DNA from: a virus
Lineage: Duplodnaviria; Heunggongvirae; Uroviricota; Caudoviricetes
Reading direction: 5' to 3' (one strand)
Virus record (IMG/VR): IMGVR_UViG_2778261688_000005
Location: 1 to 10,981 of that record
DNA: 10,981 nucleotides
Shown: piece after piece, positions 1 through 10,981 of the stretch
How the letters are laid out: every line of letters starts with the position of its first letter
Position numbering within the stretch: position 1 is the stretch's first letter
The notes under the pieces: model-generated
What the model was told of the DNA's origin: nothing
The model's database searches: none
Seen by the model: only the letters and a program-made list of their open reading frames with translations
Made by a program: the position numbers and the translations under genes

Positions 1-753
1 GACAGGCGTGTCATCAGCATGGAGCTTACCGTCAGTCAGCACATAGTCCTGAAGCGCTTCTTCCAGCGGTGACAGTAGCCGGCAGCATGCATCCACCCAG
101 CCCGACAGCAGTGAACGACTCAGCTCCACGCCCTGGCGGCCGTACATTTCAGACTGGCGGTACAGCGGGGTGTGCTCTGCATACTTTGAGATCAGCACGC
201 GGGCCAGCAGCCCCGGTCCTGCGATACCCCGCTCGATGGGCCGTGAAGGCGCGGGGGCCTGCACGATGGCATCGCACTGAGTACAGGCATGCTTTTCACG
301 TACAGTCCGGATAACCCGGAAGGCGCTGCGCATCAGCTCCAGCTGTTCGGCGGCATCCTCACCCAGATAGCTCAGCGAGCCTCCACATTCCGGGCAGCAT
401 GACGCTGCCGGCAGCAGCCGTTTTTCATCGCGGGGGAGTGATTCGGGGAACGGTTTGCGGGTGCGGGTTTGACGCAGCGGGCGCTGCACGGCCGGGTCGT
501 CAACCCGACCGGTAAGGGTATCACTTTCTTTCTGAAGTGCCTTCAGGTCAGCTTCCATCTGTGCGATACGACGGGAGACTTTTTCCGAGCGGCTGCCGAA
601 GTTCATCCGGCGCAGCTTATCCAGCTGTGCCTGCAGATGGTCTATTTCGCGTTCACGCTCGTTCAGCTTTTCCTGCAGGGCACGGTTCAGCGCCTCCTGT
701 TCGGCAAGGAGACGTTTCAGTGCATTGATATCGTCAGGAAGTGAGCTGCTCAT
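1..753 (-). CDS. tnpC: IS66-family transposase TnpC, N-terminal 251 codons (3' end beyond window start)
   Basis: Reverse complement of 751-753 is ATG, followed by MSSSLPDDINA... The antisense of plus ORF 469..744 gives the leucine-rich coiled-coil region (LKRLLAEQEALNRALQEKLNEREREIDHLQAQLDKLRR) and a CxxC zinc-finger-like stretch typical of IS66 TnpC. No stop codon occurs in this frame down to position 1. Confidence 0.8.
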   Translation of the reverse strand, partial: MSSSLPDDINALKRLLAEQEALNRALQEKLNEREREIDHLQAQLDKLRRMNFGSRSEKVSRRIAQMEADLKALQKESDTLTGRVDDPAVQRPLRQTRTRKPFPESLPRDEKRLLPAASCCPECGGSLSYLGEDAAEQLELMRSAFRVIRTVREKHACTQCDAIVQAPAPSRPIERGIAGPGLLARVLISKYAEHTPLYRQSEMYGRQGVELSRSLLSGWVDACCRLLSPLEEALQDYVLTDGKLHADDTPV

Positions 754-801
754 ACCGGGTATATTACCAGGCTCATTCAGCGTCGACCAGGATAAAGAGG
801 C

Positions 802-1149
802 TTACAACATAGTCAGGGACGTAAGCAGTCTTTTAGGCTGCCGCCAGTCGATACCTTCCAGCAGCATCGCCAGCTGTGCCGGTGTGAGGAACACTTTGCC
901 ATCCCGGGCTGACGGCCAGGCGAAGCGGCCGCGCTCCAGCCGTTTGGTCAGCAGACACAGTCCATCGCCGGTAGACCAGAGGAGCTTTACCTGACTGCCA
1001 TTACGCCCACGGAAGATAAAAACGTGACCTGACATCGGATCGTCTTTCAGCGTCGTCTGCACCTTTGCCGCCAGGCCGTTGAAGCCGTTTCTCATATCGG
1101 TGATGCCAGCGACCAGCCAGATCTTTGTCCCTGATGGTAATGGGATCAA
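802..1149 (-). CDS. tnpB: IS66-family accessory protein TnpB (IS66 Orf2)
   Basis: 115-aa ORF MIPLPSGTKIWLVAGITDMRNGFNGLAAKV... has the length and signature of IS66 Orf2. It overlaps tnpA by 4 nt, as is usual for IS66 orfA/orfB. Confidence 0.85.
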   Translation of the reverse strand: MIPLPSGTKIWLVAGITDMRNGFNGLAAKVQTTLKDDPMSGHVFIFRGRNGSQVKLLWSTGDGLCLLTKRLERGRFAWPSARDGKVFLTPAQLAMLLEGIDWRQPKRLLTSLTML

Positions 1150-1550
1150 CGTTTGAGCTCCCGTATCAGCAGGTTCAGGATATTTTCGCTGATGGCACCA
1201 TTCAGACGGAGTGATCCGTGCCGGAACGTCACTTCACAGCTGATATTGAGTGATTCAGGTGTCGCAGCAGCTACAGGTTGTGACCGGGGGGAGGTTGTAG
1301 GGACAACATCTTCGGCATCAAGTGTTATCGGGAGCAGCTCAGGCACGTTGTTTTCTGTTGTTGAAGGAGGACGTAGTTTTCCTTCGCGCCAGTACTGGCG
1401 CCACTTGAACAGCAAATTATCGTTGATCCCATGCTCACGAGCGAGTTGCGCTACGGAGATCTCTGGTCGATGCGAGAGTTCAACCATTTTGATTTTGAAC
1501 TCAACGGGATAATTAGGGCTTTTTTTACGCACTGCGGTTAATGATTTCAT
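1146..1550 (-). CDS. tnpA: IS66-family TnpA (IS66 Orf1, helix-turn-helix protein)
   Basis: 134-aa ORF MKSLTAVRKKSPNYPVEFKIKMVELSHRPEISVAQLAREHGIN... with an HTH-like N-terminus, first gene of the IS66 triad, about 80 bp inside the putative IR. Confidence 0.85.
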   Translation of the reverse strand: MKSLTAVRKKSPNYPVEFKIKMVELSHRPEISVAQLAREHGINDNLLFKWRQYWREGKLRPPSTTENNVPELLPITLDAEDVVPTTSPRSQPVAAATPESLNISCEVTFRHGSLRLNGAISENILNLLIRELKR

Positions 1551-1599
1551 GGATTGCGTCCACCATATTTGGTGTCCACTATTCTCTCAGGAATTTCAG

Positions 1600-1631
1600 G
1601 ATCTGCCAGACGGTGCTGAGACGACGCTTAC
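1600..1631 (-). repeat. Putative terminal inverted repeat of the IS66-family element
   Basis: Reverse complement starts GTAAGCGTCGTCTCAGCACCGTCTGGCAG. The partner repeat lies outside the window, so this cannot be confirmed here. Confidence 0.45.
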
Positions 1632-1733
1632 GATAAAGACGGCTTTCTTGCCACAAATGGCAGCACGTTAACCATTCAGTCAAATGGTGCGGCGTTTACT
1701 GCCACAACCATCAAGATAATCGCGGAGCAGTAA
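1632..1733 (+). pseudogene. 3'-terminal 33-codon remnant of an upstream phage gene (probably the tail needle / P22 gene 26 equivalent), truncated by the IS66 insertion
   Basis: Open frame from 1632 (first base outside the IS terminus) to TAA at 1731-1733 encodes DKDGFLATNGSTLTIQSNGAAFTATTIKIIAEQ*. The stop overlaps the next ATG (TAATG), which is typical operon coupling. Identification as tail needle is by synteny only (P22 order 26-14-7-20-16). Confidence 0.4.
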
Positions 1734-2188
1734 TGATTCAGTTCAAACCAACGCGAAACATCGACCTGATCGAAGCAGTCGGAAATCACCCTGACATTAT
1801 TGCCGGGAGCAACAACGGTGATGGATACGACTACAAACCTGATTGCCGTTACTTTGAGGTGAACGTGCACGGGCAGTTCGGCGGCATTGTTTACTATCAG
1901 GAGATTCAGCCGCTGACATTAGATTGCCACGCCATGTACCTGCCAGAGATTCGCGGCTTCAGCAAGGAAATTGGGCTGGCGTTCTGGCGATACATTCTGA
2001 CTAACACCACCGTTCAGTGCGTCACATCGTTCGCCGCACGCAAATTCCGCCACGGTCAGATGTACTGCGCAATGATTGGCCTTAAGCGTGTAGGAACCAT
2101 CAAGAAATACTTCAAAGGCGTGGATGACGTGACTTTTTACAGCGCCACACGAGAAGAACTAATCGACTTCCTGAATCACGGGAGATAG
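1733..2188 (+). CDS. P22 gene 14-like protein (151 aa)
   Basis: ORF sits immediately upstream of the gp7/gp20/gp16-like cassette, in the position of P22 gene 14. GGAG lies 5 nt upstream of the ATG, and the start overlaps the preceding stop. Confidence 0.7.
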   Translation: MIQFKPTRNIDLIEAVGNHPDIIAGSNNGDGYDYKPDCRYFEVNVHGQFGGIVYYQEIQPLTLDCHAMYLPEIRGFSKEIGLAFWRYILTNTTVQCVTSFAARKFRHGQMYCAMIGLKRVGTIKKYFKGVDDVTFYSATREELIDFLNHGR

Positions 2189-2190
2189 CC

Positions 2191-2883
2191 ATGTTATATG
2201 CATTTAAGCTGGGCAGAAAACTGCGCGGCGAGGAACCTTATTGCCCTGAAAAGGGTGGGAAAGGTGGCAGTTCTGATAAAAGCGCAAAGTATGCAGCAGA
2301 AGCTCAGAAGTATGCCGCAGACCTGCAAAATCAGCAGTGGCAGACGATCATGAAAAACCTTGCTCCGTTCACGCCGCTTGCGGAGCAGTATGTTAACCAG
2401 CTTCAGAACCTTTCCAGTTTAGAAGGACAGGGTCAGGCACTTAATCAGTATTACAACTCTCAGCAGTATAAAGACCTTGCAGGCCAGGCTCGTTACCAGA
2501 GTCTTGCTGCTGCGGAGGCTACGGGAGGACTTGGTTCGACAGCCACAAGCAATCAACTTGCTACGATCGCGCCGACTCTCGGTCAGTCTTGGTTATCAAA
2601 CCAGATGAGCAATTACAACAATCTGGCAAACGTTGGGCTTGGTGCTCTGCAAGGTCAGGCAAACGCCGGGCAGACGTACGCCAACAACATGAGCAGCATT
2701 GCACAGCAAAGCGCAGCTCTTGCCGCTGCTAATGCCAACAAACCATCAAGTCTTCAGACAGCAATTAGTGGCGGAACGTCTGGTGCGATTGCCGGTGCAG
2801 GTCTTGCCAGCCTTTTGGGAACATCAACACCTTGGGGCGCTGGCATTGGTGCTGGTATCGGATTGCTTGGCTCGTTGTTTTAA
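2191..2883 (+). CDS. Ejection (internal virion) protein, P22 gp7-like (230 aa)
   Basis: GGGAG is 6 nt upstream of the ATG. The size is close to P22 gp7 (about 229 aa). The C-terminus is Gly/Ala-rich and hydrophobic (GAIAGAGLASLLG...GAGIGAGIGLLGSLF), consistent with a membrane-inserting segment. Position is second in the 14-7-20-16 order. Confidence 0.75.
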   Translation: MLYAFKLGRKLRGEEPYCPEKGGKGGSSDKSAKYAAEAQKYAADLQNQQWQTIMKNLAPFTPLAEQYVNQLQNLSSLEGQGQALNQYYNSQQYKDLAGQARYQSLAAAEATGGLGSTATSNQLATIAPTLGQSWLSNQMSNYNNLANVGLGALQGQANAGQTYANNMSSIAQQSAALAAANANKPSSLQTAISGGTSGAIAGAGLASLLGTSTPWGAGIGAGIGLLGSLF

Positions 2884-2892
2884 GGGGTAATC

Positions 2893-4188
2893 ATGGCTAC
2901 TTGGCAAGGATCAAATGGCGGATTGTTAGCTGGTATCGGCGGCGTCAACTCAAACGCTCCGAGCGTAAATGACATCGGCAATACGCTTCAGCTTATCAGG
3001 CAGAACAATGATATTGAGCGTTCAGGCGCTAACAATGTTGGGCTGACTGCTTTGCAAGGCCTTTCAGGTATTGCGGGGGTGTTTCAGCAGGAAAAGCAGG
3101 CTCAGCGGCAGAAAGAATTTCAGCAGGCATACGCTAATGCTTATGCGTCTGGTGATCGCGGTGCTTTGCGTCAGTTGGCTACTCAATATCCAGACCAGAT
3201 TGAATCCGTTCGTAAAGGCATGGGATTCATTGATGAAGATCAGCGTAATTCTATCGGCACCTTAGCGGCTGGCGCACGCCTTGCGTCATCGTCTCCAGAA
3301 GCAATGCAATCATGGCTGCAAAACAACGCCAAGGAACTGACTCGCGTCGGTGTTGACCCTAATAACGTTGCTCAGATGTATCAGCAGAACCCTTCAGGAT
3401 TTGGTGAGTTTGTTGATCACCTTGGAATGGCTGCTCTTGGTCCGATTGATTACTTCAATGTTCAGGACAAGATGGCTGGTCGTGAAATTGACCGAGGCAG
3501 GCTGGCAGAGACAATCCGCAGCAATCAGGCTGGAGAAGCACTAACAGCGCGTGGTCAGGACATCCAGATACGTGGACAGAACATCAGCGCACAGAATGCT
3601 GCTCTTTCCCGCGAAATACAAAGAGCAGAATTACAAGAAAAGGCTCTGGACAGACAGATAGCCAGAGAAAGCAATCAGTTAAAGCTTGAAGAGCTAAAAC
3701 AGAAACAGGCAGATGTTCGGCAAAAGGCTGACATAGCCCGCGCTGACAGGCAGGCCGCCGCTCAGGGTGCAGTTGATACGTTCAGCACAGCACTTGATTC
3801 TCTCAACGAGATAGAGCAAAGCCCCGGCCTTTCAAAAGCAGTAGGAATTCGCTCAGCGTTTCCAACAGTTCCTGGCTCTGATGCGGCTAACTTTGAAGCA
3901 AGGCTCGACACCTTTAAAGCTCAAACTTTCCTTCCTATGGTGCAGTCCCTTAAGGGTATGGGGGCTCTTTCAGATGCTGAGGGTAAAAAATTATCCGATG
4001 CGGTTGGTGCCCTAAGCCCCAAAATGAGCGAAAAGGCTTTTCGTGACTCTATCGGAAAGATTAGAAATCAGCTTGAAAGCAAGTTGAGCACTGTTAAAAA
4101 ACAGTTTGATTATCAGGATCCAGTACAGAATACGCCAGGACAACAATCTCCTGCTGGCAGTAACTTTTCTTCACTATGGGGTGATTAA
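2893..4188 (+). CDS. Ejection protein, P22 gp20-like (431 aa)
   Basis: AAGGGG ribosome-binding site upstream. Contains a long charged coiled-coil-like segment (REIQRAELQEKALDRQIARESNQLKLEELKQKQADVRQKADIARADRQ). Third in the syntenic cassette; its stop overlaps the next start (TAATG at 4186-4190). Confidence 0.75.
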   Translation: MATWQGSNGGLLAGIGGVNSNAPSVNDIGNTLQLIRQNNDIERSGANNVGLTALQGLSGIAGVFQQEKQAQRQKEFQQAYANAYASGDRGALRQLATQYPDQIESVRKGMGFIDEDQRNSIGTLAAGARLASSSPEAMQSWLQNNAKELTRVGVDPNNVAQMYQQNPSGFGEFVDHLGMAALGPIDYFNVQDKMAGREIDRGRLAETIRSNQAGEALTARGQDIQIRGQNISAQNAALSREIQRAELQEKALDRQIARESNQLKLEELKQKQADVRQKADIARADRQAAAQGAVDTFSTALDSLNEIEQSPGLSKAVGIRSAFPTVPGSDAANFEARLDTFKAQTFLPMVQSLKGMGALSDAEGKKLSDAVGALSPKMSEKAFRDSIGKIRNQLESKLSTVKKQFDYQDPVQNTPGQQSPAGSNFSSLWGD

Positions 4189-6185
4189 TGGCTAAAGCAT
4201 GGAAAGATGTTATCGCCTCTCCACAGTATCAGGCGTTAGCACCAGAACAAAAAGCGCAGGCTCAGGAGCAATACTTCAATGAAGTCGTGGCCCCGCAAGC
4301 CGGAGAAAATGCAGAGCAGGCTAAGCAAGCTTTCTATGCAGCCTATCCATTGCCATCTGTGCAGCCAGTGGAGACACAGCAACCAGTAGCACAGCAACAA
4401 CCACAGCAAAGTGGATTTATGTCTGATCTTGGTGAAGCAGTGAAAGAGACTGGTCGCGGACTGGTGCAGGCTGGCGTGAACGTGGCAAACATACCTGCAT
4501 CAGTTGCCGATGCTGTAACAAGCGCGGCGGCTTGGGCTGGCGGTAAACTCGGCATTGGCGATGGTACATATCAACCAGCGCCACGAGTAACAACGCAGGG
4601 ATTAGAGCAGGACTTTGGCCTTCGGCAAGGTGCGCTGACTCCACAAACGACAGAGGGAAGGGTATTTGCTGAAGCATTGCCTTACCTCACTCCTGCTGGC
4701 GTTGAGAGAGCGGCGGTACAGGCACCAACACTTGCTGGTCGAATTGCTCATGGGGCAACTCGCCTTCTCGCAGAAAACGCAGTTGGATCACTTGCTGCAA
4801 ACAGTATGAAAGATGATGCGGAAGCACTCGCTACCGATTTAGGTGTTGGCGTTCTGGCAGGCGGCGCTATTAACGCTGCTGGACGTGGATTAGGTGCTGC
4901 TTATCGTGGCGTCCGCGGTGCTATTGCGCCAGAAGCGCAGCAAGCTATCAGATTTGCAGAGCGTGAAGGAGTTCCTCTGCACACCACAGACCTGTTACAA
5001 CCCACTTCCCGCGTCGGAAAAATGGCGCAGACTACAGCAGAAAATATCCCTCTGGCTGGCACAAGCGGAATGAGAGCAACGCAACAGGAAGCGAGAAGCC
5101 AGTTGGTGCAGAGATTTGCCGATAAATTCGGTGAGTATGATCCAGCGGTTGTTATTGACAGCCTTAAAGCGAAAACATCAGGAATTCGTCGTGCCGCCGG
5201 TAATCGACTGGAGCAGGTTCAGAATGCTATGGCTGGAGTAAACATTCAGCCTGCGCGAGCAATTCAGCAGATTGATACAGAAATATCTAACCTGCAGAAG
5301 CTTGGTAAGGTCGCCGATAACGAGACTATTTCAAAACTTCAGTCCTATCGTGATGAGCTTGTTCGCAATGCTGGTCCGGATGGTCCGGTAAATCTGGATT
5401 TGAAGCAATTAAGCGATCTGCGCAGCCAGTTCAGAATGGACGTGAAGGGGGAACGACCAGTGTTACCAAACCGTTCCGATGCTGCCATTCAGCGCGTTTA
5501 CAAGGCGATGACAGACGATATCAATGGTGCCATTGGTCAGAATCTTGGCAACGATACTCTCCGTAAATATCAGCAGGCCAATGCCGTCTACGCTGACGAA
5601 GCGGCGAAACTAAAGAATACCAGGCTGAAGAATGTTCTCATGAAAGGCGACCTGACGCCGGAAGTTGTCAACAACATGCTATTCAGCAAGAACAAATCGG
5701 AAATTAAGACGCTGTATAACTCAGTTGGTCGTGTTGGCAGGGCGCAAATGCGCAATGGCATCATTGGAAAGGCGATGGAGAAATCTGGCGGATCCCCTGA
5801 CCAGTTCCTTCGGCAGCTTAACATCCTGCAAAACCAGACTGGCATCACATTTAAAGGTCAGGAAGCCGCTTATCTGAAAGGATTGAAAAACTACCTGCAA
5901 TCCACGCAGCAGGCTGCAAAAGCAGCAGTAACAACACCAACAGGGCAGCAAACCATCCCGTTCATTATCGGGTATGGGACGGCAATGAACCCGGCGACAA
6001 CTGGCGCAGCGGTAAGCTACGGACTTCTTACTCGCGCCTATGAGAGCGAGCCATTCAGAAATGCAATGCTCCGAATGGCAAATACCCCACGCGGATCGAC
6101 AGCGTTTGAGAAAGCCATGCAGCAAGCGCAAAAAGCGATTAATGCACTGACGCAGGGTGCGAAGTCTGATTCGTTGTCAGAATAG
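4188..6185 (+). CDS. Ejection protein, P22 gp16-like (665 aa)
   Basis: Large Ala/Gln-rich protein, last gene of the cassette and translationally coupled to the gp20-like gene. The size is in the range of P22 gp16 (about 609 aa). Confidence 0.75.
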   Translation: MAKAWKDVIASPQYQALAPEQKAQAQEQYFNEVVAPQAGENAEQAKQAFYAAYPLPSVQPVETQQPVAQQQPQQSGFMSDLGEAVKETGRGLVQAGVNVANIPASVADAVTSAAAWAGGKLGIGDGTYQPAPRVTTQGLEQDFGLRQGALTPQTTEGRVFAEALPYLTPAGVERAAVQAPTLAGRIAHGATRLLAENAVGSLAANSMKDDAEALATDLGVGVLAGGAINAAGRGLGAAYRGVRGAIAPEAQQAIRFAEREGVPLHTTDLLQPTSRVGKMAQTTAENIPLAGTSGMRATQQEARSQLVQRFADKFGEYDPAVVIDSLKAKTSGIRRAAGNRLEQVQNAMAGVNIQPARAIQQIDTEISNLQKLGKVADNETISKLQSYRDELVRNAGPDGPVNLDLKQLSDLRSQFRMDVKGERPVLPNRSDAAIQRVYKAMTDDINGAIGQNLGNDTLRKYQQANAVYADEAAKLKNTRLKNVLMKGDLTPEVVNNMLFSKNKSEIKTLYNSVGRVGRAQMRNGIIGKAMEKSGGSPDQFLRQLNILQNQTGITFKGQEAAYLKGLKNYLQSTQQAAKAAVTTPTGQQTIPFIIGYGTAMNPATTGAAVSYGLLTRAYESEPFRNAMLRMANTPRGSTAFEKAMQQAQKAINALTQGAKSDSLSE

Positions 6186-6226
6186 CCTTTCAAACACCAG
6201 GAACGTGCAAAAACCAAATATGTAGA

Positions 6227-6254
6227 ATGCAATATTCATCATATCTCTTTGCAT
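6227..6254. promoter_or_regulatory. Second copy of the dyad motif (ATGCAA-N16-TTGCAT with internal CATCATATC) in the gp16 / mnt intergenic region
   Basis: ATGCAA 6227-6232, CATCATATC 6237-6245, TTGCAT 6249-6254. Same sequence elements as the 6609-6637 site, arranged differently. Confidence 0.25.
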
Positions 6255-6274
6255 AAATCCTCCGTAATGGATGG

Positions 6275-6535
6275 TTAGTTGCTGTCTTTTTTATATAGCT
6301 CCTTGAGCGTATCAAAGACAATTTTCTTAACCATATCAGATTGTTGTTCTGCCATACGCTCTGCATCGTCAATGTAAACTGATGCAGAGCTTTGTTTATC
6401 CAATGATTCTTCAATCGCTGCAATTATCTCTGAGTTCAGCGACCTGTTATTCATCTTCGCACGCTGCTTAATTTTCGCGTGGAGTTCATGCGGAAGTCTC
6501 AAGTGAAACTGCGCCTCGTCGTATTTGCTGTACAT
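6275..6535 (-). CDS. mnt: Mnt-like ribbon-helix-helix repressor (Arc/Mnt family); the ORF extends to an upstream ATG at 6568, but the internal ATG at 6535 aligns with the P22 Mnt start
   Basis: FHLRLPHELHAKIKQRAKMNNRSLNSEIIAAIEESL matches the RHH region of P22 Mnt as I recall it (HFNFRMPMEVREKLKFRAEANGRSMNSELLQIVQDAL). The C-terminus DDAERMAEQQSDMVKKIVFDTLKELYKK matches the Mnt tetramerisation helix (NDAERLADEQSELVKKMVFDTLKDLYKK). Confidence 0.8.
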   Translation of the reverse strand: MYSKYDEAQFHLRLPHELHAKIKQRAKMNNRSLNSEIIAAIEESLDKQSSASVYIDDAERMAEQQSDMVKKIVFDTLKELYKKDSN

Positions 6536-6608
6536 CCTTGATGCCTCACCAGTTGGGTGGAATGGCATCGTAACCTACTGGATAAATACTCAATAGTACC
6601 ATTTCGGT

Positions 6609-6637
6609 ATGCAATCACATCATGGTTGCATCATATC
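6609..6637. promoter_or_regulatory. Dyad element ATGCAA-N11-TTGCAT followed by CATCATATC in the mnt / tailspike divergent intergenic region; candidate operator and promoter region
   Basis: ATGCAA at 6609-6614 and its reverse complement TTGCAT at 6626-6631; the 9-mer CATCATATC at 6629-6637 is repeated on the other side of mnt. It lies between two divergently transcribed genes. Confidence 0.3.
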
Positions 6638-6656
6638 ATTCGTTTGGAGCAATGAA

Positions 6657-8639
6657 ATGTCAGATATCACCGCAAATGTTGTGGTAAGCATGCCTTCGCA
6701 ACTCTTCACTATGGCTCGTTCTTTTAAAGCCGTAGCCAATGGCAAAATTTATATCGGAAAAATTGACACTGACCCGGTAAATCCAGAAAACCAGATCCAG
6801 GTTTATGTGGAGAACGAAGATGGCTCTCATGTTCCTGTTTCGCAACCAATCATCATTAACGCTGCTGGATATCCGGTATATAACGGACAGATTGCCAAGT
6901 TCGTAACTGTGCAAGGCCATTCTATGGCTGTTTATGATGCGTACGGTGCGCAGCAGTTCTATTTTCCTAATGTGCTGAAGTATGACCCGGATCAGCTTGA
7001 GCAGAGGCTCTCTTCTTTTGATGGGCAAAAATATATAGGAGTATGTCCAGACATTGTCACATTACGAACAATAGAGCCAACGGTTGATGGCCAAATGATA
7101 ACTCTTAAGCAACACACAGATGGAACAGGGATTGGTGGTGGTAGATTTCGCGCTGTTTTACATGGTGAATCTTACTCTGATAACAACGGGACTATAGTTA
7201 AAACTGTTGGCGGCTCTGCTTGGTTGCGCATTAATGCTGATGTAGTAAACCCATTGATGTTTGGAGCTTATGGAGACGGTATTACTGATGACACGGAAGC
7301 TGTTAATAATGCAATTGCTTCATCAAGCAATATTGATGGCGTTGCAAACACATACCTTGTATCAGGTAATGGCATACAAATTCAGCATGGTAAAACATTT
7401 AAAAATGCAACAATAACTGAGTCGAAAGCAAGCAATGCCGTTATGCTGAGATTTACAGGTAGTAATTCGGCAATAGAAAACATTATTTTCGATGGTTCCA
7501 ATGGATTAACAAGCAGAGGGGTAATTGTCAACGCTGGTCTTTCTGATATACACATCTACAAATGCAGAGCGACTGACCTTAAAAAACCATTTGTAGGAGT
7601 GTCTGGAGACTATGATAATAATCTTTTCTGTGTTCGAGTAACAATTGAAAAATGTTTCGCCAATAACTGCGGAAATGATGGTACAAATTACGACCGTTCA
7701 ACAATAATATTTGACGGGGTTTCAGGTTGCACTGTAAAAGATTGCTATTTCAGCTCATGCAATTGGGGAATTACTTTCAGACAGCCGTATGACTACCCAG
7801 AGTTAACAAAACCTTATGCGTACTACAACAGAGTTGATGGTTGCTACTTATCCGGGAAGACCGGTTACCCATATAATCAGGGTATCAGCGCGCAAAGCCA
7901 AAAACATTTCTCAGCATCAGGAAACACGATAGAAGGATTTTTAGGTAACGCTATCGATAACCAAAGATGTGACTTTAGTCGCATCGAAAACAATAAACTT
8001 TCATCCGGAGATGATGGTATCTTTTTTGGTGATTTAAACTGCAAGGGCCACGTTGTGACTGGTAACGTGATTACTGGATGTGCAAGGGGTATTAGGGTTT
8101 ACGGTGCCGTTGGAGATTGGGCTAATCAGGCCATGACGGATATCACCATAACCGGTAACATAATAACGGACTCCACCGTAGTAGGCATCTATGTGTACCG
8201 CACGGAGCCGACTAACTCCTTTGCTGGTTTTAACATCACAGAAAATATCATAGACAACTCAGGCACAAGGTCGCTAACCGGCAACACACAAGGCATTCTC
8301 GTAACAGGGTTGTCAGGTGGCGTCGTGTCGAATAACGTTATACGCAATACACGCATGGAAGGGTTAAGGTTCGTTAACTCTGTCGGGGTTGTGGCTGTGG
8401 GTAATTCTGTGACTGGATTCGATTACTCTGCTACGGCGCAAGCTGGTATTTACATCGATGTAACTTCAAGAGGTATACAACTAAGAAATTCAACTGTTTC
8501 ATCTTCAGGTGGTTCAGGTGCAGCAGTTAGAGAAGCGGGCGTTAATAACACGGTCACCGGAACCAGATGGAATGGAGTCACTACTGGGGTTAACTCAACC
8601 GGCACAGGTGCTGTATTGGACGATAACGTTGGATTTTAA
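6657..8639 (+). CDS. Tailspike protein: P22-type head-binding N-terminal domain fused to a right-handed beta-helix (pectate-lyase-like) receptor-binding domain, a putative polysaccharide depolymerase
   Basis: From the ATG at 6657 (GGAG 7 nt upstream) the protein starts [59 protein letters not shown]...VLKYDPDQ, which matches the P22 gp9 N-terminus ([43 protein letters not shown]...). After about residue 115 it diverges into a sequence with a [21 protein letters not shown] motif and repetitive G/N/T/V-rich beta-helix-like segments. The ORF track starts at 6609, but the homology-supported start is 6657. Confidence 0.85.
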
Positions 8640-8641
8640 AA

Positions 8642-8666
8642 AAAGAGCGCCTTGTTGGCGCTCTTT
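8642..8666. terminator. Hairpin terminator between the convergent tailspike and acyltransferase genes
   Basis: AAAGAGCGCC-TTGTT-GGCGCTCTTT gives a 10-bp stem with a 5-nt loop. On the minus strand it is followed by a run of seven T (complement of AAAAAAA at 8638-8644), a strong intrinsic terminator for the acyltransferase transcript. On the plus strand only TTT follows. Confidence 0.6.
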
Positions 8667-8668
8667 AA

Positions 8669-9691
8669 TCACGTTATTATTTTCAATTTATTCTTTATCA
8701 TTATTGGTAAAATTGGTACTATAATTCCGAGAAAAACATACAATATAAATGAGAATTGATTGTATACATTATTTAGCTTCCCATGCTCATGGTTTTCAAA
8801 TCCAAAAAATAGAAATAATAAATTTAACATTGCAAAAACAGATAGATGCCATGACATTATTGTTTTCGAATTGTCTCCTATCATTTTCAATAATCTATTA
8901 TATTTAGATGATAGGATATTGGATATTATTAACACTACAAAGATACATATCAATGATGCTATTGATGTCATAATAAAACCAGATGGGTATGTTGACCATG
9001 CCATTGCACTTTGTTTTATCAATCCAAATGATATCATTGTTCCTGTTATAACTATCAAAATCATTGCTGATATTGGGTTATTTACTGTTAGTGATTGTTT
9101 TTTTAGTGAAAAGCCAAGTAGCATAAACATAGAACCATAAAGTGACTGTGCGGAAACATTATAAATTTGATATCCAGTCTCCTTAAATTTTACTGCGCAT
9201 ATGTTAAGCGCCACAAAGCCAATAATTATTGCAATTATAATTAACGTAATATTTTGGTGTTTAAACTCAGTAGTTACTGAGATTATAATCCTTGATATTA
9301 TTGATGATAAGTAATAAGCAAGCAAAAACCAACAAACAAGAAATAATGGGTTGTTGTGAAAGTTCTTTTCTAGTGGGTTGGTAGTGAACGGTTCGCCAAA
9401 ATACAGTCCTGTAAATTTATTTAGTGTTATTGCTAAAACTCCAGTTAGAATGTACGTAAAAACAATGTATGGGATTATTTTTTTTGATAGTTTTCTCAAT
9501 GCGTTGAACGTAACTATCTCATTTTTTAATGTCAATCCACCAACAAAAAAGAAAAAAGGCATGTGATATAAATACGGATGCATTACATTAAAGAACCCAC
9601 TTGTGTAATGACCTATCACAACAACTATTATGCCGATTGCCTTCATGTAACTTATGGACAAGCTTTGTTCATTGGTAATTTGGTGCATTTT
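8669..9691 (-). CDS. oac: Acyltransferase-3 family integral membrane protein, Oac-like O-antigen acetyltransferase (lysogenic conversion); the ORF extends to an ATG at 9733, but 9691 is the preferred start
   Basis: Polytopic hydrophobic protein of about 340 aa with a conserved His early in the first membrane segment (MKAIGIIVVVIGHY) and an FFFFVGG motif. It sits between tailspike and integrase, as oac does in Sf6 and the gtr genes do in P22. The gene is markedly AT-rich relative to its flanks. The second ATG is preceded by AAGAGA; the first has no Shine-Dalgarno sequence. Confidence 0.75.
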   Translation of the reverse strand, partial: KMHQITNEQSLSISYMKAIGIIVVVIGHYTSGFFNVMHPYLYHMPFFFFVGGLTLKNEIVTFNALRKLSKKIIPYIVFTYILTGVLAITLNKFTGLYFGEPFTTNPLEKNFHNNPLFLVCWFLLAYYLSSIISRIIISVTTEFKHQNITLIIIAIIIGFVALNICAVKFKETGYQIYNVSAQSLYGSMFMLLGFSLKKQSLTVNNPISAMILIVITGTMISFGLIKQSAMAWSTYPSGFIMTSIASLICIFVVLIISNILSSKYNRLLKMIGDNSKTIMSWHLSVFAMLNLLFLFFGFENHEHGKLNNVYNQFSFILYVFLGIIVPILPIMIKNKLKIIT

Positions 9692-9733
9692 TATCTCTTC
9701 ATTTCTATGTGGCAATATTTTCGCAAAAAACAT

Positions 9734-9823
9734 ACGAATGTTAATTTATTAATATACCAATAACATTTGAGTTAGTATGCAATTTTAAAATGTTTGTTCT
9801 ATGTGTGTGCTTTGGATGATATA
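9734..9823 (-). promoter_or_regulatory. AT-rich intergenic region upstream of the acyltransferase gene; likely promoter and possible attP location by synteny
   Basis: The minus strand contains TTGCAT (9777-9782) and an extended -10-like TGGTATATT (about 9751-9759), but the spacing between them is about 20 nt, which is too long. No tRNA-like core is visible. Confidence 0.25.
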
Positions 9824-10981
9824 TCACTCCACCTTTTCATCAAGCCAGTCCGCCCACCACTGCATCATTTCTCTGCGCTTATCTAGATATTGAGCATGGT
9901 TGTAAATCCCGCGCACAGATCCGCCGTTGGCATGTGCCAGTTGCACTTCAATAGCGTCAGCAGGCCATTCGTGCTCGTTCATAATCGTGCTGAATTCATG
10001 CCTGAATCCGTGACCGCTTTCCAGCCCCTCATAGCCGATTTGTTTGATCACAAGTAGCACCGCGTTCTCGCAGATTGGCTTCTTCTTATCGTTACGCCCT
10101 GCAAAAACAAACTCTGATACTGGTTTGGTGATGGAGCTTAACGTAGTGAGAAGTTCAACCACCTGGTCTGACATCGGGACCACATGAATTTTGCGTCCCT
10201 TCATCACATTGGCGTCGATGGTGATAATCCTGTTTTCAAAATCGACGTTCTTCCATAGCATGGAACGAAGCTCTTTTGTTCTGAGGGCTGTGTAGCGTAA
10301 AACTTTGGTCGCAATGAGCGATACGATACTTCCTGAAAATGTTGCCAGTGCTTTGTTAAATGCCGGGATCTGGTCTGCAGGAAGAAACGGGAAGTTCTTC
10401 TTGCGGTATCCTTTCATGGCGTCAGCAAGGTCAGGTGCCGGGTTATATTTAGCCCTGCCGGTGACAATAGCGTAACGGAAAACCTCGCCGCATCTTCTGC
10501 GGGCTTTATTTGCTCGCTCCATTGCGCCGCGATCTTCAAATCTGCGGATTACTTCCAGCAGTTGCATCGGCTCAATATCCTGAATTTCAAGGCCGCCGAT
10601 GATGGGTAAAATGTCGTCATCAAACATTTTGGCAAGTTCAGTTGCATAGCCTACTGACCAGACTTGCTTCTTGTGCTCGTACCATTCCTTGTAAATCGCA
10701 CTAAAGGAATTGTTGTTAGACGAAGCCTTTTTCGCCTTTACCGGATCGATGCCAACCGAGATGTCTTTCCTCGCAGTCCATGCTTTATCCCTTGCCTCTT
10801 GCAAAGTCATAAGCGGATATTTTCCGACGGTCAGGATTTTCTCCTTACCGTCAATCTTGTAGCGAAGCTGCCATACCTTTTTCCCGGATACAGGGACATA
10901 AAGGTACAGGCCATTACCATCGAGAAGGCGGTATGGTTTTTCTTTCGGCTTTGCTGCTTCAATCTGCTTAACGGTGAGCAT
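9824..10981 (-). CDS. int: Tyrosine site-specific integrase, P4-type (arm-binding N-terminal domain plus catalytic domain)
   Basis: 385-aa ORF. The N-terminus LTVKQIEAAKPKEKPYRLLDGNGLYLYVPVSGKKVWQLRYKIDGKE is the typical P4-family arm-binding domain. The C-terminus carries the catalytic residues in HGFRHEFST...LAHANGGSVRGIYNHAQY (R...HxxR...Y). The start ATG is the last codon of the window, so the true N-terminus could lie a few codons further upstream. Confidence 0.9.
   Translation of the reverse strand: MLTVKQIEAAKPKEKPYRLLDGNGLYLYVPVSGKKVWQLRYKIDGKEKILTVGKYPLMTLQEARDKAWTARKDISVGIDPVKAKKASSNNNSFSAIYKEWYEHKKQVWSVGYATELAKMFDDDILPIIGGLEIQDIEPMQLLEVIRRFEDRGAMERANKARRRCGEVFRYAIVTGRAKYNPAPDLADAMKGYRKKNFPFLPADQIPAFNKALATFSGSIVSLIATKVLRYTALRTKELRSMLWKNVDFENRIITIDANVMKGRKIHVVPMSDQVVELLTTLSSITKPVSEFVFAGRNDKKKPICENAVLLVIKQIGYEGLESGHGFRHEFSTIMNEHEWPADAIEVQLAHANGGSVRGIYNHAQYLDKRREMMQWWADWLDEKVE

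Follow-up and report, generated by a model that had tools for sequence, protein, structure and literature searches.

An IntS-type integrase gene directly beside a putative conversion gene in a P22-like element of Escherichia coli, with the attachment site very probably on the far side of the integrase

The window, by which we mean the whole stretch of 10,981 nucleotides analysed here (positions 1 to 10,981 of IMG/VR record IMGVR_UViG_2778261688_000005), ends in three genes, for a tailspike, an AT3 acyltransferase and an integrase, which together occupy its final 4.4 kb. The remainder corresponds to genes for ejection proteins and tail in Sf6 and other Lederbergvirus phages, with about 95-96% identity. 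Very probably the window comes from a temperate phage or prophage of Escherichia coli that is P22-like (Lederbergvirus) and has a recombination module of the KplE1/CPS-53 IntS-TorI type; it would be the end that runs from the tailspike to the integrase. The right-hand end of the window contains the following features:

6609-8639, + strand: tailspike gene of the P22 type, convergent with the acyltransferase gene; head-binding domain and beta-helix (Pfam Head_binding, 1.7e-67; Beta_helix; NosD)
8641-8665, - strand: hairpin followed by the U-run UUUUUUU, predicted intrinsic terminator of the acyltransferase transcript (-18.5 kcal/mol, z = -5.9)
8669-9733, - strand: gene for a membrane acyltransferase of 354 aa with an AT3 domain only (Pfam Acyl_transf_3, 1.4e-15)
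9734-9823, - strand: AT-rich spacer of 90 bp and 24% GC, from the int stop to the longest-ORF acyltransferase start
9824-9907, - strand: final 84 bp of intS, which persist as a scar in relatives with a lambda-type integration module
9824-10981, - strand: gene for an intS-type tyrosine integrase of 385 aa (Pfam Arm-DNA-bind_3, Phage_int_M, Phage_integrase)
10604-10611, + strand: copy of the repeat GGGTAAAA inside the int coding sequence, corresponding to HK620 repeat_region 829-839

Read from the integrase side, GC content is about 48-52% before 9823, falls to about 26-34% over the spacer and the acyltransferase gene, and is higher again from the tailspike gene onwards (neighbours, 45-53%). The hairpin lies in the gap common to the acyltransferase gene and the convergent tailspike gene. 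A first-pass annotation of this DNA had put the end of int 90 bp from the start of the acyltransferase gene and the start of int at the exact edge of the window, and both placements are borne out: the int stop lies at 9824, the longest acyltransferase open reading frame starts at 9733, and the integrase ATG forms the last three bases of the window. The start at 9733 (354 aa) is the one called on ENA and Logan contigs, versus 9688 (339 aa, P0001) at NCBI. The ATG at 9688 has a Shine-Dalgarno-like GAAGAGA ahead of it; a start there would lengthen the spacer to 135 bp and would leave our conclusion about the attachment site unaffected. For the tailspike, the longest open reading frame begins at 6609 (676 aa), gene callers on related contigs begin at about 6657 (660 aa), and homology among relatives starts at 6645.

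The integrase open reading frame is full length, and its product is identical at 384 of 385 residues to IntS of the cryptic E. coli K-12 prophage CPS-53/KplE1, of which it is an orthologue. At the DNA level the gene is 95.6-97.5% identical to int of HK620, Sf6, CUS-3, HF4s and others, and RefSeq names matching genes 'prophage integrase IntS'; NCBIfam has no named equivalog for either the integrase or the acyltransferase. All the domains of a P4-like tyrosine integrase are present, namely an N-terminal Arm-DNA-bind_3 domain (2.1e-25), a central domain (5.8e-28) and a catalytic Phage_integrase domain (5.4e-39). The protein is related neither to P22 Int, with which BLASTP finds no significant similarity (E = 0.12), nor to lambda Int, and its N-terminal domain is unlike the lambda-type Arm-DNA-bind_1 found in phage Gally. 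Homology with other IntS phages ends just one base beyond the int stop codon, at 9823. The motif GGGTAAAA occurs twice in the window, versus 0.26 copies expected; the arms of attL and attP (P' and P) contain it as well, and the authors of the HK620 record annotate it as an attP repeat. The copy within int is a putative att-type repeat, judged by its sequence.

No att core or other attachment sequence lies between the 3' end of int and the acyltransferase gene. ARAGORN detects neither a tRNA nor a tmRNA across the whole window, and an Rfam search of 9600-9950 at E<=10 returned just two chance-level eukaryotic matches. The argW-derived att core CTGCAGGGGACACCA, 15 bp that form the 3' end of argW, which encodes tRNA-Arg(CCU), is absent from the whole window even when up to 3 mismatches are allowed. 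Local alignment of the spacer with the argW attL region and with Sf6 attP gave scores of 14-20, against shuffle means of 17-19, and a blastn search at E<=10 of 5,426 complete E. coli genomes, with all their host tRNA and tmRNA genes, gave no match, the low-complexity filter being a caveat for a sequence of 24% GC. Nor does the spacer RNA have a significant fold (z = 0.23). These scans uphold the earlier statement that 9734-9823 contains no tRNA-like sequence. An 11-mer, TTCCTGCAGGG, common to window 670-680 and argW was rejected as a chance match (about 0.3 expected by our own arithmetic) that lies about 10 kb from int.

Since homology stops and GC content drops at 9823, the spacer is to be assigned to the acyltransferase cassette; it is neither part of the integration module nor an attachment site. 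It is present exactly in 12 of the 13 contigs with this acyltransferase, including one (L024) that is without int. A promoter scan yielded 10 sites, versus 9.0 expected, and is therefore at chance level; the scan tool proposes TTAACA-16-GAAAAT at 9744-9717, and by eye an extended -10 element, TGGTATATT, can be picked out at about 9751-9759 on the - strand. The spacer probably holds the acyltransferase promoter, with the candidate sites occurring at chance frequency.

An attP of the P22 or lambda style might nevertheless be hidden in the 90-bp spacer, too diverged or too short to be recognised, in which case the window would be unintegrated phage DNA. Such a position has a precedent in P22, where gtrA and the 3' end of int flank the attP core (21300-21322), so that int and gtr come to lie at opposite prophage ends; and in the sister prophage L024 the att junction is about 210 bp past what is left of int, and the same acyltransferase gene lies downstream of it. 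We consider this explanation scarcely credible. The integrase is IntS and not P22 or lambda Int, the spacer lacks the core, and its similarity to attL and attP does not rise above that of shuffled sequences. Moreover, the spacer is unbroken in the integrated prophages L021, L004, L022, L023 and L025-L027, whose junction is at argW, across int; a functional attP in the spacer would have been split in those prophages, which contradicts its presence there.

The location of att in other members of this integrase family points to the other side of int. The GenBank annotation of Sf6 places int at 16781-17938 (- strand) and the attP core upstream of it, at 18099-18114, and not between int and oac. 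The core sits within the small ORF 17, immediately before gene 18, and the product of gene 18, beyond the core, equals the K-12 excisionase TorI in 66 of 66 residues by direct comparison; this Sf6 TorI homologue has no Pfam match. The HK620 annotation has int at 50-1207, the attP core at 1368-1383 and arm repeats at 1207-1253 and 1441-1463, with a 'prophage excision' promoter at 1224-1273, beside the int start. The first-pass annotation had assumed an attP between int and the conversion genes for Sf6- and P22-type genomes alike, which is right for P22 and wrong for Sf6, and HK620 follows Sf6; its corollary, that int and oac sit at opposite ends of an Sf6-type prophage, fails because attP is upstream of int.

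In K-12 the gene order is yfdC - argW - intS - gtrA(yfdG) - gtrB(yfdH) - gtrS(yfdI) ... torI - pawZ - dsdC. Here pawZ is the duplicated 3' end of argW, and the attR at that place has a P arm and the core CTGCAGGGGACACCA beside torI. This IntS/TorI module has an unusual organisation that is common to KplE1, HK620, Sf6 and CUS-3: the intS promoter overlaps attL, IntS and TorI negatively autoregulate intS, and the two genes finish at opposite prophage ends (Panis, Mejean, Ansaldi; PMC2951348, PMC3509656).

Because the window stops at the int ATG, the att evidence for its own molecule comes from identical or near-identical sequences elsewhere. A few dozen contigs encode exactly this acyltransferase or its 339-aa version. 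One of them, L021 (GCA_002227175.1), matches window 3669-10981 (7,313 bp) with 100.000% identity; for L023 and L004 the identity to the window is 99.97% and 99.63%, respectively. In all three, the int ATG is followed by a 161-bp arm and then by a complete tRNA-Arg(CCT) gene, with yfdC and mlaA coming next where the contig is long enough (L021 included). In L021 and L004 the att core is the 3' end of argW, it is located 5' of int, and the int promoter region overlaps attL. More broadly, argW is beside int at seven of the eight places shown with this acyltransferase and at all ten of the places read that encode the exact window integrase.

When the attL regions of L021, L004 and K-12 are aligned with the attP regions of Sf6 and HK620, all five are near-identical from the int ATG through the core. 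The alignment splits directly 5' of CTGCAGGGGACACCA, with tRNA sequence in attL and a P arm with GGGTAAAA repeats in attP. Of the possibilities raised by the first-pass annotation, an attachment site beyond the 5' end of int is thus the one that fits, argW being 161 bp past the int ATG in L021 and L004. Its suggestion that a tRNA gene be looked for beyond 10981 leads, in these identical and near-identical contigs, to tRNA-Arg(CCT), and its premise that P4-type integrases target the 3' end of a tRNA gene is correct here, the target being argW.

With high confidence, then, we regard the adjacency of int and the acyltransferase gene with no att between them as the known IntS/TorI architecture, the attachment site being located beyond 10981. 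The source of the window would continue past that position as L021 and L004 do. If the explanation as a whole is right, as seems very likely, the attachment site would start at 10982, the first base outside the window; read on the plus strand, GGGTAAAAATCCGGTGGGTAAAATTATTTTATCCACTTTTTACCCGTCATGG... would extend over 161 bp and give way to TGGTGTCCCCTGCAG. The attP core CTGCAGGGGACACCA would lie between int and a TorI-type excisionase gene, about 160 bp from the int start codon in the upstream direction, and IntS would recombine this core with argW. The sequence after the core would be GAATCGAACCTGCAATTAGCCC (argW) in an integrated prophage (attL), and ACATCTACTTGAAGCAGCAGGGG followed by the torI homologue in phage or circular DNA (attP). 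The predicted prophage order is yfdC - argW(attL) - 161-bp P' arm with the int promoter - int - cargo - tailspike ... torI - attR - dsdC.

With attP upstream of int, integration leaves int side by side with its downstream conversion gene at the attL end. The low-GC acyltransferase cassette would fill a variable cargo slot that reaches from the tailspike terminator to the int stop codon; among contigs with an identical integrase, the slot after int is empty (the tailspike follows directly) or contains a different AT3 acyltransferase, gtrABC or other genes. The layout itself is already known, having been published and experimentally characterised (Panis et al. 2007, 2010).

The closest parallel to the integration end is KplE1 (CPS-53), which shares the near-identical integrase, the argW target, the same core and, in the window-identical sequences, a near-identical 161-bp attL arm, and which likewise has a conversion locus directly downstream of int (gtrABS in K-12). 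However, KplE1 is defective, a remnant of 10 kb in which the tail-fibre fragments are myovirus-like, whereas the window is podoviral and P22-like and has an AT3 acyltransferase gene in place of gtrABS. Sf6 (Casjens et al. 2004; GenBank AF547987) matches the window in overall order, with the tailspike followed by a terminator, an acyltransferase gene and int on the opposite strand and with attP upstream of int; its int is 96.4% identical in DNA sequence, its ejection-protein genes are about 96% identical, and its annotated oac terminator is at the same relative position as the hairpin at 8641-8665. It differs in its acyltransferase (Oac, 333 aa, versus 354 or 339 aa in the window, with the Pfam family alone in common), in an int-oac spacer of 155 bp that is unrelated in sequence to that of the window, and in the receptor-binding part of its tailspike.

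HK620 and CUS-3 have IntS-type int genes with 95.6% and 97.2% DNA identity, respectively, to that of the window, and HK620 has its attP core and arm repeats annotated upstream of int but is without a conversion gene between int and the tailspike. CUS-3 presumably has a capsule O-acetyltransferase of a different family. P22, of the same phage genus, also has its conversion genes between the tailspike and int; in addition to having an unrelated Int, it differs in that its attP core is downstream of int, before gtrA, and in that xis overlaps int.

The same IntS module would also be expected if the source of the window were phage DNA in free or circular form, or a record linearised at int, with attP (P' arm, core and P arm) and a torI-like gene beyond 10981 instead of attL and argW. 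Phage records that end at the int start do exist (vB_EcoP-683R2 ends at 43142, and VT2phi_272 begins 3 nt from int), and the P' arm adjoining int is the same for attP and attL, which is why prophage and free phage are not separable from the window itself. Against this origin, every contig retrieved with this int-acyltransferase pair is the integrated form with argW. The acyltransferase is in no record of the phage collection (tblastn against 50,697 phage records), exact-match scans of IMG/VR viral contigs and of species-representative genomes did not find the int-spacer junction, and a cut exactly at a gene boundary also suits the boundary of a predicted prophage. We therefore consider free phage DNA an unlikely source, and an integrated prophage is clearly favoured.

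A further possibility is that the adjacency arose by rearrangement or decay in a defective prophage, a deletion having taken out an attP that formerly lay between int and the acyltransferase gene. Many elements inserted at argW are indeed remnants, for example CPS-53 of K-12 and an element of about 15 kb in NCCP12480, and the 84-bp intS scar in other phages indicates that recombination occurs in the region. We think this very improbable: the int open reading frame is full length and differs at a single residue from functional IntS, the viable phage Sf6 has the same order of int, cargo and tailspike, and the ejection-protein and tailspike genes of the window are intact.

The element in E. coli NCCP12480 (2511291-2526026; L003, L032) is an argW-inserted P22-like prophage that has been cut down to about 15 kb. 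It contains torI, a truncated N gene, a cI-like repressor gene, ejection-protein genes, a tailspike gene and intS, in the order dsdC-torI ... tailspike-intS-argW. Both ends of the recombination module have been kept, and the middle has decayed.

Integration modules are also exchanged among relatives of this element. Prophage L024 (GCA_030204535.1, 4464-5000; equivalent to window 9689-9907) has the tailspike gene, the acyltransferase gene, the 90-bp spacer and the final 84 bp of intS, with no integrase gene at that place, and is joined to host bioA-ybhB via the exact lambda att core GCTTTTTTATACTAA. Its conversion gene is therefore at the end opposite int, the layout that the first-pass annotation had expected. 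L024 is 98.9% identical to window 6645-9907, and the homology of both L024 and L005 to the window ends at 9907, as does that of phages Gally and vB_EcoP-720R6. All that the latter two retain of intS is 84-86 bp from its 3' end (window 9822-9907); in Gally (OV696608.1) this remnant is at 18314-18399 (L030, 2815-2900) and is followed by a lambda-family int (Arm-DNA-bind_1) and an Exc excisionase gene. The stretch of roughly 300 bp that separates the remnant from the Gally int presumably contains the Gally attP.

The intS scars in L024, Gally and vB_EcoP-720R6 thus point to recombination inside intS as the route by which the integration module was exchanged, a case of typical lambdoid mosaicism. 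Comparison of the sequences indicates that in L024 a lambda-type module has replaced the IntS module, with a putative crossover inside intS near window 9907. Since L024 pairs the same tailspike-acyltransferase block with a lambda-type module, the integration module is not readable from the cargo alone; in the window, intS is intact.

The acyltransferase is a putative lysogenic-conversion protein that would modify the O antigen. As with Oac of Sf6, it is an integral-membrane protein with an AT3 domain only (PF01757, spanning residues 26-340 of 354), and its gene lies between the tailspike gene and int; the gene in the window is also co-inherited with the tailspike gene. It shows no sequence relationship to Oac beyond the shared Pfam family: the best segment in a single BLASTP comparison has 11 of 35 residues identical (E = 0.018). 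Identical proteins are encoded on draft contigs of E. coli assemblies, and neither the gene nor the spacer has a match in the complete E. coli genomes. Relatives are found in Enterobacter (82%), Hafnia (60%) and Salmonella (about 39%), and some are labelled 'fucose 4-O-acetylase-like'.

The tailspike and acyltransferase genes are inherited as one block (window 6645-9907) in L005 and L024, and the block moves among phages that differ in their immI/ant regions and integration modules (L004, L005, L024, L025, L028). This would suit a pairing in which receptor specificity and receptor modification are matched. The acyltransferase gene may be transcribed from its own promoter or by read-through from int; no terminator was found between the two genes, which makes read-through from the intS promoter possible. 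It is a doubtful proposition that the protein is an uncharacterised serotype-converting O-antigen acetylase which travels with its matching tailspike and whose gene is partly transcribed via read-through from the autoregulated intS promoter at attL. If it is true, expression of the acyltransferase in a lysogen would be tied to integrase autoregulation.

As a discovery, the layout carries little weight, since it is the published module of KplE1, Sf6, HK620 and CUS-3. Its use lies in annotation. The rule that attP lies between int and the conversion genes is valid for P22 and invalid for Sf6; argW, 161 bp past the int ATG, marks the attL boundary of IntS-type P22-like prophages, and the conversion gene is to be sought within the prophage beside int and not at its far end. 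The acyltransferase, together with its linked tailspike, may be of interest for work on O-antigen modification in E. coli.
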